DNA of 64,000 nucleotides from positions 215,363-279,362 of the forward strand of contig CP066697.1 of assembly GCA_016432625.1 (NCBI GenBank), written 5' to 3'. The DNA is from Candidatus Berkelbacteria bacterium. Its GTDB lineage: Bacteria > Patescibacteriota > UBA1384 > 2-12-FULL-50-11. Position 1 is the stretch's first letter. Each line of letters starts with the position of its first letter. A program made the translations under genes and the position numbers. Shown piece by piece: positions 2,572-44,879 of this stretch. Below the pieces are notes generated by a model. That model searched no databases, had not been told where the DNA came from, and saw only the letters and a program-made list of their open reading frames with translations.

Positions 2572-4803
2572 TTAAATTTTAGCCCGTTTGAGCAACAGCG
2601 AGTTTAAAACTACCGAAATTGAGCTAGCGGCCATAGCCGCGGACGCAAAGATTGGGCTTAGCAAAATTCCCCAAATCGGGAATAAGACGCCGGCCGCAAC
2701 CGGAATAAGCAGGATATTATAGCCGAATGCCCAGACCAGATTCATCCTGATTGTCCCCATAGTCTTGCGGCTTAGGCGAATTGCGGCCGCGATACTACGT
2801 AGGTCCTTATTAATGAGCGTGATGTCGGCCGCTTCAATAGCAACATCGGTCCCTGAGCCCATGGCGATGCCGTTGTCGGCAGCAGCTAGGGCTGGTGCGT
2901 CGTTGATGCCGTCGCCGACCATGGCGACATGCAAGCCTTTTTGTTGTAGTTTGCGTACCTCGAGCTCTTTGTCTTGCGGCAATACTTCCGCTAAAACATT
3001 TTGCGCTTCAACGCCAGCCTCTCGGCCTATTGCCTCAGCAACCCGTCGGTTGTCCCCGGTAATCATGTAAACTTGCAGTCCTAGCTCCCGCAGCTCTTTA
3101 ATGGCGGCTGGTGAGGTTGGTCGAAGAGTATCGGCAACAGCCACAATTCCAGCTGCTTGAGAGTCGATGCCAACTAACATAGCGGTTTTGCCTTCATTCT
3201 CGAGTTGTTCCAAGGCCGTTTCTTGATCATTAGTCAGAGCTACTTTTTCTTGCGCGAAAAGTTTACGGTTGCCGACAACTACGGTCTTTTTCCCAACTTT
3301 GCCGCGAACGCCATGGCCAGAGATTGCCTCAAAATCGCTCACCTTTTCCAATAAAAGGTTTTTATCTTTAGCCGCTTTGACGATGGCCGTTGCTAAAGAG
3401 TGTTCAGACAACGCTTCAACGGCAGCTGTGAGAGCAAGCAGCTCATTCTCCTCACGATTCCACGCCACCACCTCCGTCAGGATTGGTTCACCATTGGTGA
3501 GTGTCCCGGTCTTATCAAAAACGATAGCGGTGACTTTATGGGCGGTCTCCAACGCCTCGGCGTTTTTAATAAGAATGCCGCGCTCGGCACCCCGACCAGT
3601 ACCGACCATGATAGCCGTCGGCGTTGCTAGCCCCATGGCGCACGGACAGGCGATAATTAACACCGTAACCATGCTGAGTAAGGCGTAAGTCATTGCCGGG
3701 TCGGGACCAACAACATACCAAACCACAAAAGTTGCGATCGCTACCATAATTACTATCGGCACGAAGTAGGAGGAGATGGTATCAACCAACCGCTGGATCG
3801 GTGCCTTTGAGCCCTGAGCTTCTTCAACAAGTTTGATGATCTGTGCCAGCATTGTTTCGCTCCCAACTTTCTCGGCTACGAAAGTAAAGCTGCCAGTTTT
3901 ATTGATTGTGGCGCCAATCACAGTGTCTCCGGCTTTTTTTGTCGCTGGTATGGATTCCCCGGTTACCATCGATTCGTCGATGCTTGAGGTGCCTTCTATT
4001 ATTTTTCCGTCAACGGGCACCTTTTCGCCAGGGCGAACGATAATTTTGTCACCATGGACAACCTGGTCGATCGGTAGGTCGATTCCCTTGCCGTCGCGAA
4101 TCACCCGGGCAGTTTTAGCTTGCAGGTTCATTAGTTTTTTTATCGCCTGGCTAGTTCGTTTCTTGGCGACAGCTTCTAGATAGCGTCCAAGCAAGATGAG
4201 CGTAATAACGATGACCGAGACGTCGAAATACGGCGCGATTTCCACCCCCAGCAACGACAAAGCGCCCGGGAAGAAAGTGATAAACGCAGAATAAATATAG
4301 GCGACAGTGGTTCCAAGCGCGATCAAAGTATCCATGTTGGCGCTACGGTGGACTAAGGCGGTTATAGTGCTCTTATAAAACTGCCATCCGGCCCAAAACT
4401 GAATTGGGGTAGCTAGTAATAGTTGAAAGTAAAAGTTTTTAACAATCTCCGGAGCAGTTTCCATCACCCCGGGTACGCTTCCCCACATAACGACTAATCC
4501 AACTAAAAATCCGGCAATGATTTTTGGCTTCAAAATTTTAAGTTCACGCTCCCGCATCATTTCCTGGTGGTCGTGCTGCTCGCTGCCGGCAGGGACTGCC
4601 TTATAGCCGACCCTATTTACCGCAGCTTCTAAGTCGTGACGCGTTGCATGTTTGTGATCGTAAGCAACGGTTGCTTTCCCCGTCACTAAGTTAACATTAG
4701 CTTCGTGGACGCCCGGAACCTTAGTGAGGGAGCGCTCGATTGTCCGGACGCAGCTAGCGCAGTGCATTCCCTCGATGTTGATGGTTTCTTTTTGATGGTT
4801 CAT
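2572..4803 (-). CDS. copA: Copper-translocating P1B-type ATPase CopA with N-terminal HMA domain
   Basis: GMHCASCV metal-binding motif, CPC ([10 protein letters not shown]) in the TM helix, DKTGTLT phosphorylation motif and [10 protein letters not shown] hinge. Confidence 0.9.
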
Positions 4804-40035: not shown

Positions 40036-40106
40036 CTCCCGGGCTTGGATTCGAACCAAGATAGTCGCCTCCAAAGGGCGGTGTCCTACCATTAGACGAC
40101 CCGGGA
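40036..40106 (-). tRNA. tRNA-Gln (TTG)
   Basis: Self-complementary acceptor TCCCGGG/CCCGGGA, D-stem GTCT/GGAC, anticodon loop CTTTGGA (stem with one mismatch). Confidence 0.7.
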
Positions 40107-40181: not shown

Positions 40182-40493
40182 TTAAACTGTTTCCTTATCT
40201 TCGATCCACTCTGTTTCGACTTTAAGCGGCCAGAAATGACCCTCATTGTTAATAACAAAAGCGATCTCGAAGCTGCGGTAACAGACAGTAGCGAAGCGTT
40301 TTTTGACCGGTCGACGCTCTGAAAGGTCAACGCGACCGATAACGAGGCGGCTCGTGCCGTTTGGCACGAAGACTTCGATGATACCGCTACCGCAGTTCTT
40401 GATCGAGGTGGCATGGTCGGGAAACACCAACCGAGCTGCCTCTTTCAATAGCCACTCGTTCGACGCGGTATAGGGACGTTTAAGGTGCTTCAT
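40182..40493 (-). CDS. Hypothetical 103-aa protein; GC hairpin (40154-40175) just downstream
   Basis: ORF with no recognisable motifs; hairpin CAGGCGGCC-ataa-GGCCGCCTG after the stop. Confidence 0.3.
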   Translation of the reverse strand: MKHLKRPYTASNEWLLKEAARLVFPDHATSIKNCGSGIIEVFVPNGTSRLVIGRVDLSERRPVKKRFATVCYRSFEIAFVINNEGHFWPLKVETEWIEDKETV

Positions 40494-40544
40494 GACACAC
40501 TCCTAACGGCGCCAATATACTCTTAAGCTCGGCAGTAACGCAAA

Positions 40545-41258
40545 AGCGCCTCCTTGCGGAAGCGCTTTTAGCGGAAACCTAATAAGCCGGGTTCTGTAAC
40601 TACCTTGCGGCAGCTCGCGAACATTAATCTAATGCGTTGAGACCAACTATTCTGTCTCGAGACCGAGACGGAGCTCGTTGTTCCTTTTGGGAACGATGAA
40701 CTTAATGAATAGCGGCCCGCTCAACTTGCACCACGCTGGGTTTAGCCACTCGCCTTATTACTAAGGACGATTGTGAGCTCTTACCTCACTCTTTTCACCT
40801 TTGCCTTTTCCGATTCAGTTAGGAAGGGGCGAACAAGTCGCCCAGATTAAGGGGACGGGTCGAATGAACTAGGTCTAGTTACAGGTCACGCTGACGATTG
40901 TTGCCTTGACTACACCAGCCTCGGCGTACATTCCTTGGCAACTGTTTTCGGCCCATCGTCTTGCTTTGCGATCGGCTTCTTGGCGGTTTTCGGCATCGAT
41001 CGACTTTTCCAAAGTTTTGATATAAGAACCATTCTCATTGATTGGTTCGAACACACCTGCCTTGGCTTTGCACGTGACTCGAATTTTAGCGGTTGCATTA
41101 AAGTACATGAATATCACCTCCTAACTGAACCGGACATTGGCTGTTTTGTTTCTGTGCCACTTTCCCTTGCCTTACGACAGCCAGCCGTTAGCTGGAGCGC
41201 GTCTCTATGGTGCCCGGACTTTCCTCACATTTTAAAATGCGCGATCGCGTTGATTTCA
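40545..41258 (-). ncRNA. rnpB: RNase P RNA (bacterial type A), interrupted by a ~290-nt insertion (40828-41116)
   Basis: P4 5' strand GAGGAAAGUCCGGGCACCAUAG (41235-41214); GGGAAAGUGGCACAGAAA; AAGGUGAAAAGAGUGAGGUAAGAGCUCAC (J11/12-P12); GGCUAAACCCA; P4 3' strand ACAGAACCCGGCUUAUU (40597-40581). Promoter TGGACT/17/TATAAT upstream and hairpin plus UUUUG terminator downstream. Confidence 0.75.
40875..41108 (-). CDS. 77-codon ORF embedded in the rnpB insertion (MYFNATAKIRVTCKAKAG...SVTCN), preceded by SD AGGAGG
   Basis: AGGAGGUG, then 8 nt, then AUG; basic soluble peptide with 3 Cys; the SD forms part of the helix closing the insertion. Confidence 0.4.
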   Translation of the reverse strand: MYFNATAKIRVTCKAKAGVFEPINENGSYIKTLEKSIDAENRQEADRKARRWAENSCQGMYAEAGVVKATIVSVTCN

Positions 41259-41326
41259 CGGAAATTATAGCCCAAATTATCGTGAAAGTCCACCGCTAGA
41301 GTGGCGATTTTCTCTTATTGTAAAGC

Positions 41327-41938
41327 TTAGAGAAACGATTGCCGGTGCAGCGTGCACGGTCCGATTTCACTGATTTTCTGGCGATGAAAAGCGGTGCCGT
41401 AGCCGGCGTTCTGGTGCCAGACGTATTCGGGGAAAAAGCGGTCGTAAACTTTCATCAGCTGATCGCGATAGACTTTTGCCACTATAGAAGCGGCCGCAAC
41501 GGGGTAGAACAAGGAATCACCGTGGGTGGCTCTAATGTATCGGCATTTGGTCGGCGGGTCGTAATGGTCCGTTAAGACCAGGTCGGCTTCAAATTCACTA
41601 AGAGCTCTTTGGTAGGCTAGTCGTAGGGCCTGGCTCAACCCGAGGCTATCAATTTCTAAGTGGCTAGCGTAGCCGAAACGGATTCTCACAACGGATCTAT
41701 GTATAATCTGAGCAACCTCTGCCCTGAAACGACGTTCCAGAAGTTTGGAATCGTTAACACCGGGAATCTCGGTTGCTATTTCAACTGCGGCAACAATCAC
41801 CGGCCCGGCTAATGCCCCGCGGCCAACCTCATCGACGCCGACGATTTCTTGATAACCTAAATCTTGAAGCTGTTTTAAAAGATGAAAATCAGGTGTGGAC
41901 GGGCTGAGCGGTCTTGGTCTTAGCTTTTTTGGGAGCAT
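41327..41938 (-). CDS. rnhB: Ribonuclease HII
   Basis: VGVDEVGRGALAGPV active-site motif (DEDD family), 203 aa. Confidence 0.85.
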   Translation of the reverse strand: MLPKKLRPRPLSPSTPDFHLLKQLQDLGYQEIVGVDEVGRGALAGPVIVAAVEIATEIPGVNDSKLLERRFRAEVAQIIHRSVVRIRFGYASHLEIDSLGLSQALRLAYQRALSEFEADLVLTDHYDPPTKCRYIRATHGDSLFYPVAAASIVAKVYRDQLMKVYDRFFPEYVWHQNAGYGTAFHRQKISEIGPCTLHRQSFL

Positions 41939-44759
41939 CTGCCTTTGACGATACCAGGAATTTGCCGGTTATCGACTGCGGGTTCTTGATAATTTCATCC
42001 GGCGTCCCAGTAGCCACGATGTTACCACCCTTTGTACCGCCATCCGGGCCAAGGTCAACAATCCAATCGGCACAGCGAATTACGTCGGTGTTATGTTCGA
42101 TGATGATCACCGTATTACCTCTATCGACGAGCTGATAGAGCACTGTTAGCAATTTCTGAATGTCCTCAAAATGTAGGCCGGTTGTAGGTTCATCCAAAAT
42201 ATAAAGCGTTTTGCCGGTCTCGCGTTTTGCGAGCTCAGTAGCGAGTTTAATGCGTTGTGCTTCACCGCCAGATAACGTCGTGGCTGGCTGTCCGAGTCGC
42301 ATATACTCTAGGCCGACTGACTGTAGGACGGAGAGTTTTTCCGTAACCTCAATTTCGCCATCGAAAAAGTTCAACGCTTCTTCAACCGACATTTCTAGGA
42401 CGTCGCTAATATCTTTGCCCTTGTACTTTATCTCAAGTGTCTCGGCGTTGTAGCGACGGCTGCGGCATTCAGGGCACTGGACGTAAACATCAGGCAGGAA
42501 ATTCATCTCAATTTTAATTTGGCCATCACCGCGACAGTGCTCGCAGCGACCACCGCGTAAATTGAAACTGAAACGAGATGGGTCGTAGCCGCGATTCATC
42601 GCTTCACTAGTGTTAGCAAAAAGTTCCCGAATTGGGCCTAGGGCACCGGTGTAAGTGGCGGGGTTACTGCGAGGTGTGCGGCCGATTGGTGACTGGTCGA
42701 TGTTGATAATGTTGTCTATCTCCTCCGTACCCTCGATACGTTCGTGCGGTGCTGGGTCGTCGCCTGATCCATGGAACTGATTTTCTAGAGCCCGGGCCAG
42801 AGTATCTTCTACGAGCGTTGATTTACCGCTGCCAGAGACGCCGGTGACGCAAATCAGGCGGTTGAGCGGGAACGAAGCAGTGACGTTTTTGAGGTTATTG
42901 CCTGTGGCGCCAACGACAGTTAGATAGCTCTCGGCATGTTCGTGACGGTGCTCGGGTAGTGAGATGGATTTTTTGCCTGACAAATAGGCACCCGTAACTG
43001 AATTTGGGTCGTTAAGGATCTCTTTCAAAGTTCCTTGGGAAATAATTTTTCCACCGTGCTCTCCTGCACCTGGTCCCATGTCGATAATCTCATCGGCACG
43101 CAGCATCGTTTCTTTATCGTGCTCGACGACAATTACCGTGTTACCGCGTTCTTTTAGCTCCTCGATAGTTTGCAGCAACTTGTCGTGATCGCGGGGGTGC
43201 AAACCAATTGACGGCTCATCAAGAATATAGATAACGCCAGTTAGCCCTGCCCCAAGTTGGGTGGCTAGGCGAACCCGCTGCGCTTCGCCGCCAGCTAACG
43301 TTGAAGTCGTTCGGTCGAGCGTGACATAGCTAAGGCCAACCTCAAGTAGATAGCTCAAGCGGGAGCGGATTTCTTTCAAAATAGGTACGGCGATAACCTG
43401 CTGTGAGGCGTGAACCGAAGCAGATAGTTCGGCGAAGAAATTATTCGCGTCCTCAATCGACATGGATGTGGCGTCAATAATGTTCTTATCTTTAATTCGG
43501 ACGCTGAGAACCTCTACTCTAAGTCGCTGGCCGTTACATGACTGACAGGTTTTCTCGACCATATATTTTTCAATCTCGTTTTTAAGATAATCGGAATCCG
43601 TTTCGCGGTAACGCCGTTCCAAGTTTGGAAGAATGCCTTCGAAAGCTTCCTCGTCGGAGTCGTTAGTGGTCTTTTCACCGTGGAGCAGGATATCTAAAGT
43701 TGCCTCTGGCAACTCTCCGACAGGGGTGTCGAGGCTGAAGCGGTATTTAGCACTTAAGTCGTTTAAGACCTTTTGATACCAATTGGCGTGGCTTGTCGTC
43801 CGACTCCAAGGGCGAACAGCACCTTCAGCGAGAGTTAGTCTAGGGTTAGGGATAACTAGGTCGCGATCAGCGACCATTTGCACGCCTAAGCCCTGGCAAA
43901 TCTGGCAAGCACCCTCGGGGTTATTAAACGAGAAGAGCCTCGGTTCAATATCAGGAAATTGCCAGCCACATTTGGTGCAGGCGAACTTCTGTGAGTAAAA
44001 TTCTTCTTTGTCGCCGTGGGAGGCGATTAATAGTCCGTTCCCTAACTTCAAGGCTCGGTCGACAAGTTTAAGTAGGTCTATTTGCGCCAATTGCTCTGAT
44101 TGGTCGTTACTAACGGGAAAATCGATAGAGCCAACTAGGAATTCGATGGTGTGTCGCTTGTTTTTATCAACCTCTAGACCGATTGCCTCGTTGATATCCA
44201 TTTCGACGCCATCAACACGTACACGTAAAATGCCCGACTTCTTGCCCTGCTTTAAGTGAAATTTGTGTTCTCCCTTACGAGCCTGGACGATCAGGGCATA
44301 CAAAGTAACTTTTAGAGTTTCTTCCAAACGGAAATGCTTTAGGATTGCTCGAGCGATTGATTCTGGTGACTGTTGGGTGATTGGGATATCGCACTTCGGG
44401 CAAAATGGCGTACCCACACGTGAAAATAGTAGACGCAAGAAGTCATAAATCTCGGTCGCTGTAGCAACCGTTGAACGTGGGTTACGGGCGGCAGTCTTTT
44501 GGTCAATAGCAATTGCCGGCGCTAAACCCTCGATGTAATCAAAGTCTGGTTTCTCAATTTCGCTTAAGAATTGACGGACAAATGAGCTCAGCGATTCGAT
44601 ATAGCGCCGTTGTCCTTCGGCGAAAATAGTATCAAAAGCAAGCGAAGATTTACCGGAGCCAGAGAGACCGGTCACTACCGTGATCTTGTTTTTGGGAATC
44701 TCTACCGTCAGATTCTTCAGGTTATGGGTTCTGGCGCCGACGACGCGAATGCTTTCCAT
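41889..44759 (-). CDS. uvrA: Excinuclease ABC subunit A
   Basis: Two ABC modules ([25 protein letters not shown]) and zinc-finger Cys clusters. Start set at M41 ([16 protein letters not shown]), the canonical UvrA N-terminus. Confidence 0.9.
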
Positions 44760-44879
44760 GTATGAACTGCCTGCAAGTCTAGCAAAAAAATATTGACACT
44801 TCAACCCCCTAGGGACTTGCAAATAGCCGTCTTTGGGATACAAAAGAAACAGTAATAAAAGGTAAGCACGAGGAGGCAT

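Follow-up and report, generated by a model that had tools for sequence, protein, structure and literature searches.

In a 64,000-nt stretch of DNA from Candidatus Berkelbacteria bacterium (contig CP066697.1, positions 215,363 to 279,362; hereafter the window), the gene for the RNA of RNase P, rnpB, appears in two conserved halves separated by a large insertion that contains an open reading frame (ORF). What is this insertion, and is the ribozyme that carries it still functional? The explanation that fits the data best, to which we assign a probability of about 70%, is that the locus is a functional type-A rnpB with a portable ORF cassette, similar to an intervening sequence (IVS), in the apical loop of helix P12, and that translation of the ORF is gated by the stem that closes this loop.

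An Rfam scan of the whole window gave one full-length match to RF00010 (bacterial RNase P, class A) at 40568–41260 of the minus strand. The match is far beyond chance (157.2 bits against a gathering score of 100; E 9e-49) and covers model positions 1–367 without truncation. The original prediction, made from the sequence alone, had proposed one rnpB transcription unit with a large insertion of coding potential. This proposal holds: the single covariance hit spans both halves, rather than one half only or two separate genes. Every motif quoted in the prediction was found on the minus strand (41400–40400). The promoter (which a consensus scan also returned), the 3′ strand of P4 and the terminator-like hairpin with its UUUUG lie exactly where they had been placed; the 5′ strand of P4 is also present, but its assignment to 41235–41214 was wrong by 9 nt. 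The universally conserved strands of the P4 pseudoknot (GAGGAAAGUCCGGGC ... ACAGAACCCGGCUUA) are exact matches at 41226–41212 and 40597–40583. The host gene and its expression signals are arranged as follows.

41264–41292, minus strand: sigma-70-like promoter, TGGACT / 17 nt / TATAAT (consensus scan, 10 of 12 matches)
40568–41260, minus strand: complete type-A rnpB including the insertion (RF00010 alignment)
41144–41260, minus strand: 5′ part of the ribozyme, with P1, P2, P3, the P4 5′ strand, P5, the P7–P11 5′ strands and J11/12 ACAGAAAC
41226–41205, minus strand: P4 5′ strand GAGGAAAGUCCGGGCACCAUAG (sequence match)
40568–40808, minus strand: 3′ part of the ribozyme, with the 3′ base of P12, J12/13 GGUGAAAAG, P13, P14 and the remaining helices (RF00010 alignment)
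40789–40773, minus strand: P13 (GUGAGGUAAGAGCUCAC; covariance-model alignment)
40769–40751, minus strand: P14 (covariance-model alignment)
40597–40581, minus strand: P4 3′ strand ACAGAACCCGGCUUAUU (sequence match)
40541–40565, minus strand: terminator-like hairpin GCGCUUCC-GCAA-GGAGGCGC followed by UUUUG, directly after P1 (sequence inspection)

The −10 element stops 4 nt ahead of the first base of the model match. The 3′ part also holds the 3′ strands of P11, P10, P7 and P5, P15–P17 with an extra hairpin, J18/2, and the 3′ strands of P2, P4 and P1. The terminator-like hairpin was missing from the list of a simple scan; an equivalent hairpin with a U-run occurs 3′ of rnpB in the loci L005, L084, L086, L089 and L091 (L numbers denote individual loci from other assemblies and metagenomes). 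When six cassette-bearing rnpB genes were compared, 8 pairs of P13 and P14 were found to have changed on both sides, and none was broken. The host ribozyme is intact, and these paired changes show it to be under structural selection.

The covariance-model alignment assigned all of the additional rnpB sequence to a single loop. The insert is about 326–333 nt long (41138–40806) and lies between model positions 136 and 137, that is, in the apical loop of P12. Its size was therefore underestimated in the original prediction (about 290 nt), although its large extent was correctly recognized, and the proposed location at P9/P10 does not hold: P8 (CCAGCUAACGGCUGG), P9, P10 and P11 are all intact upstream of the insert, and the motif that had been labeled J11/12-P12 is actually J12/13-P13. 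Within the specificity domain of RNase P RNA, P12 is a helix of peripheral position and variable length. Thus, the insertion leaves the catalytic core, which had been thought to carry it, uninterrupted: an 18-bp extension of P12 keeps the insert outside the ribozyme. Since the region is 100% identical in L001 and L002, two independent assemblies from other sequencing runs, the interrupted rnpB is not an assembly artefact.

Other peripheral parts of this rnpB also vary. P18 is wholly deleted (model positions ~284–303; site at 40600–40640, minus strand), and its site is flanked by the 3′ strand of P15 (CAACGC) and J18/2 (UUAGAUUAAUG); the corresponding site holds a P18 hairpin in L003 and two hairpins in L005. 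An extra hairpin of about 32 nt, GUUCAUCGUUCCCAAAAGGAACAACGAGCUC, occurs in the P16/P17 region (40655–40705, minus strand), and inserts of a similar kind are found at the same position in L003, L005, L006 and L084.

The insert itself is an ordered module: a stem that buries the Shine-Dalgarno (SD) sequence, an ATG, the ORF, and a GC hairpin that abuts the 3′ arm of the stem. Its parts, together with the native base of P12, are as follows.

41135–41143, minus strand: 5′ side of the native P12 base, CAGCC (41143–41139), and AAUG linker (alignment and fold)
41117–41134, minus strand: cassette 5′ arm UCCGGUUCAGUUAGGAGG, pairing with 40826–40809 (fold, duplex energy and covariation)
40875–41108, minus strand: ORF of 77 amino acids (aa), MYFNATAK...VTCN (234 nt including the stop codon)
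40827–40843, minus strand: GC hairpin GGGCGA-CUUGU-UCGCCC (fold; covaries at 4 of 6 pairs across loci)
40809–40826, minus strand: cassette 3′ arm CUUCCUAACUGAAUCGGA, with the anti-SD sequence CUUCCU at 40826–40821

A perfect SD sequence, AGGAGG, makes up the final six bases of the 5′ arm (41122–41117, minus strand), and its spacing to the ATG (41108) is 8 nt. The 3′ arm lies 48 nt beyond the end of the ORF (40875), a distance that includes the GC hairpin, and no linker (0 nt) separates the hairpin from the arm. The complementary arm pair, UCAGUUAGGAGG / CUUCCUAACUGA, extends P12 by 18 bp without interruption (two G-U pairs; −30.4 kcal/mol) and dominates both the minimum-free-energy fold and the centroid fold of the region (z = −4.7 against shuffled sequences). 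The predicted probability that the SD sequence is unpaired is 0.01 in the full transcript and 0.24 in a nascent RNA that lacks the 3′ arm. On the opposite strand, an ORF of 111 aa (40935–41270, plus strand) overlaps both the cassette and the 5′ half of rnpB in antisense; it was judged spurious, as it lies opposite a structured RNA and has no support of any kind.

Is this module peculiar to the window? Loci L083–L087 were found by scanning metagenomes for J11/12 and, after it, the SD arm, and L088–L091 were reached through profile searches with the cassette ORFs. At least eight other genome types, most of them labeled Saccharimonadales, have a module with near-identical arms and different ORFs in the P12 helix of rnpB. 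In total, 15 cassettes in 11 loci share the SD motif, spacer, start codon, ORF, GC hairpin and anti-SD arm in this order: the SD motif is CAG(U/C)UAGGAGG, the spacer measures 5–12 nt, the start codon is ATG, GTG or UUG, and the ORF encodes 60–94 aa. In every complete locus, the GC hairpin lies directly 5′ of the arm C(U/C)U(U/C)CUAACUGA, with a linker of 0 nt, and the arm duplex has 17–21 bp (−28 to −37 kcal/mol). The distribution among relatives is sporadic: the cassette is present in the window, L005, L083–L087 and L089–L091, and absent from L003, L004 and L006. Of the four closest genomes (L003–L006), only L005 has the cassette; the rnpB of L003 has 372 nt and a minimal P12 (CCGCCCUUCGGGGUAAGG), and those of L004 and L006 carry non-coding P12 expansions of about 90–120 nt. 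The cassette P0008 (the L087 type) was recovered without change, and invariably at the syntenic site, on 24 contigs from many samples.

Some loci carry arrays. Two ORFs are present in L089 and L090, and three in L005, whose P12 insert reaches about 850 nt (rnpB region 6815–8090 of L005). Because of this insert, the rnpB of L005 goes undetected at the Rfam gathering score: it gives only two partial matches, of 65.3 and 38.6 bits, and would likely enter annotations as three hypothetical proteins with 'no RNase P RNA'. The internal junctions of the arrays repeat a 13-nt motif, CUCAGUUAGGAGG, and the UAG stop codon of the first ORF lies inside the repeat. L005, L089 and L090 share an orthologous first ORF of 87 aa (74–78% identity), whereas the subsequent ORFs differ among them (61 and 82 aa, 81 aa, and 94 aa). 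Array content therefore changes on a short evolutionary scale. The contrast in identity between the rnpB flanks (88–98%) and the inserts (near-random) was also considered as proof of cassette swapping and was rejected, since rnpB is under much stronger constraint than a small protein and the genomes lie far apart (RNase HII 53–61% identical); the evidence for turnover lies instead in the differing array content and in the 23S rRNA homologue described below.

To count covariation, the arms and the first six pairs of the hairpin were combined into one alignment of nine distinct loci. Standard pairs are formed by 98.1% of the cells, and 7 pairs changed on both sides, a number that was reached by none of 500 shuffles and compares with 0–2 in slid controls; the register of this alignment was taken from predicted structures and so leans towards structure, but the compensatory changes are nonetheless visible in the raw sequences. 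The hairpin covaries at four of its six pairs, as is seen from GGGCGA/UCGCCC, GGGGAC/GUCCCC, GGGUGU/ACACCC and GGGCAA/UUGCCC.

Repeats of another kind were noticed in the same set of genes. The rnpB of L087 contains three copies of a GC-rich mini-hairpin of about 30 nt (core CNNCGCNCNAACGNGCNNCGG, e.g., CCGCCUACGCGCUAACGCGCUACGGCGAGG): at 3703–3723, 3932–3952 and 4355–4375 of the minus strand, that is, after P4, in P13 and before the 3′ strand of P4. Related single mini-hairpins seem to occur in P13 of L084 and L006 and before P4 in L086. This element, which is absent from the window, resembles a second, non-coding insertion of the repeat type. In addition, short repeats similar to GCUAG(A/U)AGCUAG fill the P12 expansion of L006 (5740–5860) and the region just upstream of the L084 rnpB; they recall the short tandem repeats reported for cyanobacterial P12.

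The cassette family was not confined to rnpB. The four P0011 contigs (L092–L095) are fragments of 23S rRNA genes (RF02541 model positions 1099–1482, 183 bits), and their ORF occupies the apical loop of the hairpin at RF02541 positions 1206–1226, which is helix 45, a classical IVS site. The 5′ flank consists of AUUCAGUUAGGAGG, 7 nt and a GUG start codon; the 3′ flank consists of the hairpin GGGCAAC-UCCU-GUUGCCC and then CUUCCUAACUGAAU. The arms of the 23S cassette are lengthened by additional complementary sequence. Since the same module is found in P12 of rnpB and in helix 45 of 23S rRNA, it is a portable unit that resides in two different stable-RNA genes. Some of the P0011 contigs come from samples that also hold the L087-type rnpB cassette. 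The cassette pattern, sought with arm spacings of 215–335 nt, was absent from 2.9 million viral contigs of IMG/VR. One of the 23S fragments, L092, has a second insertion of about 158 nt (700–900 of the contig; position ~1403–1408 of the large-subunit model), downstream of the helix-45 cassette, which contains short repeats of the AAGUCUAA type.

The proteins were examined for selection, fold and homology. For the 87-aa ORF, the ratio of nonsynonymous to synonymous substitution rates (dN/dS; Nei-Gojobori) among L005, L089 and L090 was 0.11–0.24 at dS 0.57–1.24, and for the pair of ORFs in L085 and L091 it was 0.16. About half or more of the differences between orthologous ORFs fall at third codon positions, and no frameshift was found. 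These codon comparisons show that the sister cassette ORFs are under purifying selection. Moreover, the chance that 15 independent inserts would each keep a frame of at least 60 codons just after a perfect SD sequence would be negligible.

The cassette proteins, of 60–94 aa, are hydrophilic, and a globular fold is predicted for them. For the 77-aa protein, AlphaFold2 gave a confident model (predicted local distance difference test, pLDDT, 83.9; predicted template-modeling score, pTM, 0.67) with the topology beta(3–14)-beta(28–39)-alpha(42–61)-beta(66–76). The model of the 87-aa protein, ORF-A, has the same order of elements, at a low confidence (pLDDT 60) that allows its use for topology only. 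The motif that the proteins share, h-E-A-x-[SDN]-x-x-[EQD]-A at the start of the helix, is weak. In an exhaustive search of 1.84 billion representative proteins, the sole homologue of the window ORF was P0011; a word-indexed protein search with the same ORF gave self-hits only. Thus, the closest relative of the window protein sits in another host RNA, and the cassette protein is not specific to RNase P. Among 11 cassette proteins, none matched Pfam or NCBIfam, including S23p (PF05635) and homing-endonuclease domains, and none gave a PADLOC hit; one of the 11 gave a single PHROG hit at chance level (E 0.002).

How might such an arrangement work? The long stem would insulate the folding of the ribozyme, whose P12 belongs to the specificity domain, from the insert, and it would at the same time lock translation by sequestering the SD sequence. 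Two routes could release the lock. In route (a), RNase III would cut the coaxial helix of roughly 25–30 bp and free a small mRNA, the 3′ end of which the GC hairpin would protect; RNase P RNA would then persist as two base-paired pieces, as is the case with the IVSs of 23S rRNA. In route (b), ribosomes would load co-transcriptionally, within the interval of about 290 nt before the anti-SD arm is synthesized. Excision by RNase III is slightly favoured by analogy, because of the 23S context and the GC hairpin. As to why the cassette persists, it is most likely a mobile or accessory gene for which a strongly and constitutively transcribed, essential and insertion-tolerant RNA would provide a safe harbour.

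The possibility that the insert is retained, so that a dual-function RNA is translated from the ribozyme transcript without processing and mainly during transcription, is less probable but deserves serious weight; it would yield few protein molecules per RNase P RNA molecule. It agrees with several features: the anti-SD arm lies about 290 nt 3′ of the SD sequence, and full sequestration is predicted only in the complete transcript (0.01 versus 0.24); a single promoter and a single terminator bracket the unit; long P12 expansions are tolerated in L004 and L006; and large helix extensions are documented for RNase P RNAs of the candidate phyla radiation (CPR; PMC8172020). However, the identical cassette occupies helix 45 of 23S rRNA, a classical site from which IVSs are excised by RNase III, the arm-stacked GC hairpin resembles a 3′ stabiliser of a released RNA, and the 850-nt, three-ORF array of L005 would be bulky on the specificity domain. 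An addiction module similar to type I toxins, in which a harmful small protein is held off by SD sequestration as in hok mRNA, appears improbable. The SD sequence is indeed locked in a long-range stem, and the cassettes are small, fast-evolving and sporadic, but the proteins have the size and hydrophilic, presumably globular beta-beta-alpha-beta character described above rather than that of membrane peptides, no antisense RNA or promoter signal is evident, and no PADLOC or toxin-family match was obtained.

Three further explanations have very little left to recommend them. That the expansion is a non-coding, structural one with an accidental ORF could be argued from the status of P12 as the most variable helix, from the non-coding expansions of about 90–120 nt in L004 and L006 and from the lack of any known family for the window ORF; this view is largely refuted. 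Equally poor are the prospects for a decaying pseudogene, with the active RNase P RNA or a protein-only RNase P encoded elsewhere. The inspection was limited to 64 kb of the genome, P18 is missing and one mismatch occurs at the base of P12, but the full-length match is well above the gathering score, both P4 strands are intact, as are the promoter and the terminator, and many genomes and samples retain the interrupted gene at its syntenic position. Decay is further opposed by the structural selection seen in P13 and P14, where compensatory changes broke no pair, and by two features of the relatives, a conserved promoter-proximal start and a terminator hairpin that follows P1. The least credible candidate is a self-splicing group I or group II intron with an ORF of the homing-endonuclease type. 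Introns of both groups are abundant in CPR rRNA genes (PMC11270868), but no intron family was found in the window at the gathering score, and none in the insert at E ≤ 1. Neither LAGLIDADG nor GIY-YIG nor any other Pfam domain is found in the ORF, an insert of about 330 nt with an ORF of 234 nt leaves no space for an intron core, and a location in a hairpin loop closed by complementary arms is the arrangement of an IVS. An integron gene cassette was also considered and rejected: the neighbours are uvrA, rnhB, small ORFs and a tRNA gene, no integron integrase is found, and where one ORF of an array adjoins the next, only the 13-nt SD motif is present, without an inverted repeat that could serve as attC.

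Several points weigh against the reading of the locus as a functional rnpB with a stem-gated, IVS-like cassette. We infer both the fate of the insert (retention or excision) and the translation of the ORF. At equilibrium, much of the SD sequence remains paired in the fold of the nascent RNA, and the co-transcriptional route is therefore not clearly favoured. No mobility enzyme was seen beside the rnpB locus, and no RNase III gene signature was found in the 64-kb window. Purifying selection is shown for the sister cassettes only, since the window ORF has no close orthologue. The cassette proteins gave no significant match in Pfam, NCBIfam, PHROG, PADLOC or the sequences of the PDB, and structure comparison of the cassette protein yielded only generic fold resemblance. 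Finally, an uninterrupted rnpB elsewhere would, by the original prediction, have marked the locus as a pseudogene; the Rfam scan found no second rnpB in the window, which covers only 64 kb of the genome. In the comparison with related rnpB loci, which the prediction had proposed, the insert proves to be a conserved, portable cassette that other genomes and 23S rRNA have in common.

On structural grounds, as far as they can be read from sequence, the locus has the features of an IVS: the position in an apical loop, the complementary arms and the sporadic distribution. The known IVSs of 23S rRNA (helix 25/45; Salmonella, Leptospira, and Coxiella burnetii with its S23p ORF) likewise occupy the apical loop of a helix in an essential stable RNA, are enclosed by a long stem of complementary arms, may contain an ORF and occur sporadically among relatives, and one member of the cassette family sits in helix 45 itself. 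The cassette differs from them in its host, P12 of RNase P RNA, in ORFs that are unrelated to S23p/PF05635, and in having a stem-embedded SD sequence, a covarying GC hairpin and up to three tandem ORFs. According to PMC4990558, the Coxiella IVS is 428 nt long, lies in helix 45, contains an ORF and is processed by RNase III; the same study suggests that S23p is not made in vivo, whereas the cassette ORFs are under clear purifying selection.

Within the same super-phylum, rRNA genes of the CPR also serve as stable-RNA hosts for insertions with internal ORFs, among them group I/II introns with LAGLIDADG or GIY-YIG domains (PMC11270868); the cassette has neither intron structure nor an endonuclease domain. 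The same survey describes short, non-intron insertions, presumed to be of the IVS type, at known RNase III sites in CPR rRNA, and found rRNA insertions to be exceptional in Saccharibacteria; RNase P RNA lay outside its scope. The RNase P RNAs of the CPR have been described with helix extensions, missing helices and detection failures (10 of 35 CPR genomes), and with no coding inserts (PMC8172020). The rnpB of the window agrees with the expanded RNase P RNAs, both of the CPR and of cyanobacteria, in that P12 and other peripheral helices tolerate large insertions; those expansions have been described as non-coding, whereas that of this rnpB is a translated-looking cassette with its own ribosome-binding site. 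For cyanobacteria, P12 expansions made of heptanucleotide repeats are said to have been reported by Vioque in 1997.

Bacterial RNAs with a dual function, such as transfer-messenger RNA (tmRNA), SgrS/SgrT, RNAIII/hld and SR1/SR1P, combine an RNA function and an ORF on one transcript. The window RNA resembles them in this respect. It differs in that the RNA is a universal ribozyme and the ORF is an exchangeable insert, insulated in a hairpin loop and not integral to the RNA. Long-range SD sequestration with a kinetic or processing window is familiar from the maturation gene of MS2, hok mRNA and the RNase III activation of lambda N. There, too, the SD sequence is paired with a distant segment, and translation of the cassette would similarly need a nascent state or processing; these systems have no homology to the cassette, and the resemblance lies in the proposed mechanism only.

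What would follow for the CPR in general? In a broader hypothesis, for which we would offer somewhat less than even odds, CPR stable-RNA genes would be platforms for the integration and expression of mobile, translation-gated cassettes. The RNase P transcript would be the precursor of mono- to tri-cistronic mRNAs, the cassettes would move from one host RNA or genome to another via their conserved 13-bp arms, and mature RNase P RNA might be a two-piece molecule divided at P12. If true, such a division would possibly be the first natural one in a bacterial RNase P RNA. This universal ribozyme has been treated as purely non-coding, and a conserved protein gene nested within it under selection, in arrays of up to three, would represent a novel way of combining coding and catalytic RNA. 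Full-text literature searches returned no account of a bacterial RNase P RNA with an ORF or an IVS, although this is not proof of novelty. The IVS phenomenon would be extended from rRNA to another essential RNA, and the shared module, being defined by sequence, makes both the movement of IVSs and the relevance of their ORFs testable. There are consequences for annotation as well: cassette arrays drop rnpB below the Rfam thresholds, which helps to explain the 'missing' RNase P RNA of the CPR (PMC8172020), and gene callers annotate the cassette ORFs as ordinary hypothetical proteins while the host RNA goes unnoticed. The cassettes would also represent a new family of small beta-beta-alpha-beta proteins in ultra-small symbiotic bacteria.

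The genes on the upstream side of rnpB are the following.

41327–41938: RNase HII gene, rnhB (PF01351, E 3e-29)
41889–44879: uvrA, a neighbour of rnpB

The gene order uvrA-rnhB-rnpB recurs in relatives. In a collection of genomes at species level, the RNase HII genes most similar to that of the window (the 53–61% identity given above) belong to metagenome-assembled genomes of Candidatus Saccharibacteria, Saccharimonadales or Patescibacteria. These neighbours show the window to be chromosomal DNA of a CPR bacterium and place it in Saccharibacteria. A cyanobacterial origin, which the HIP1 motif in P2/P3 of rnpB had suggested, was rejected on account of this placement and of the low number of motif copies. 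On the other side, between the rnpB terminator and a tRNA gene (40036–40106), there is an ORF of 103 aa (40182–40493, minus strand) that has no Pfam match and was also called by gene callers on L001 and L002; genomes of the L087 type have a different ORF, of 117 aa, at the equivalent position. The window contains nine tRNA genes in its 64 kb, on both strands. The HIP1 motif GCGATCGC occurs in 6 copies in the 64 kb, where 1.5 are expected, and one of these copies lies in the 5′ P1/P2-P3 region of rnpB (41241–41248).

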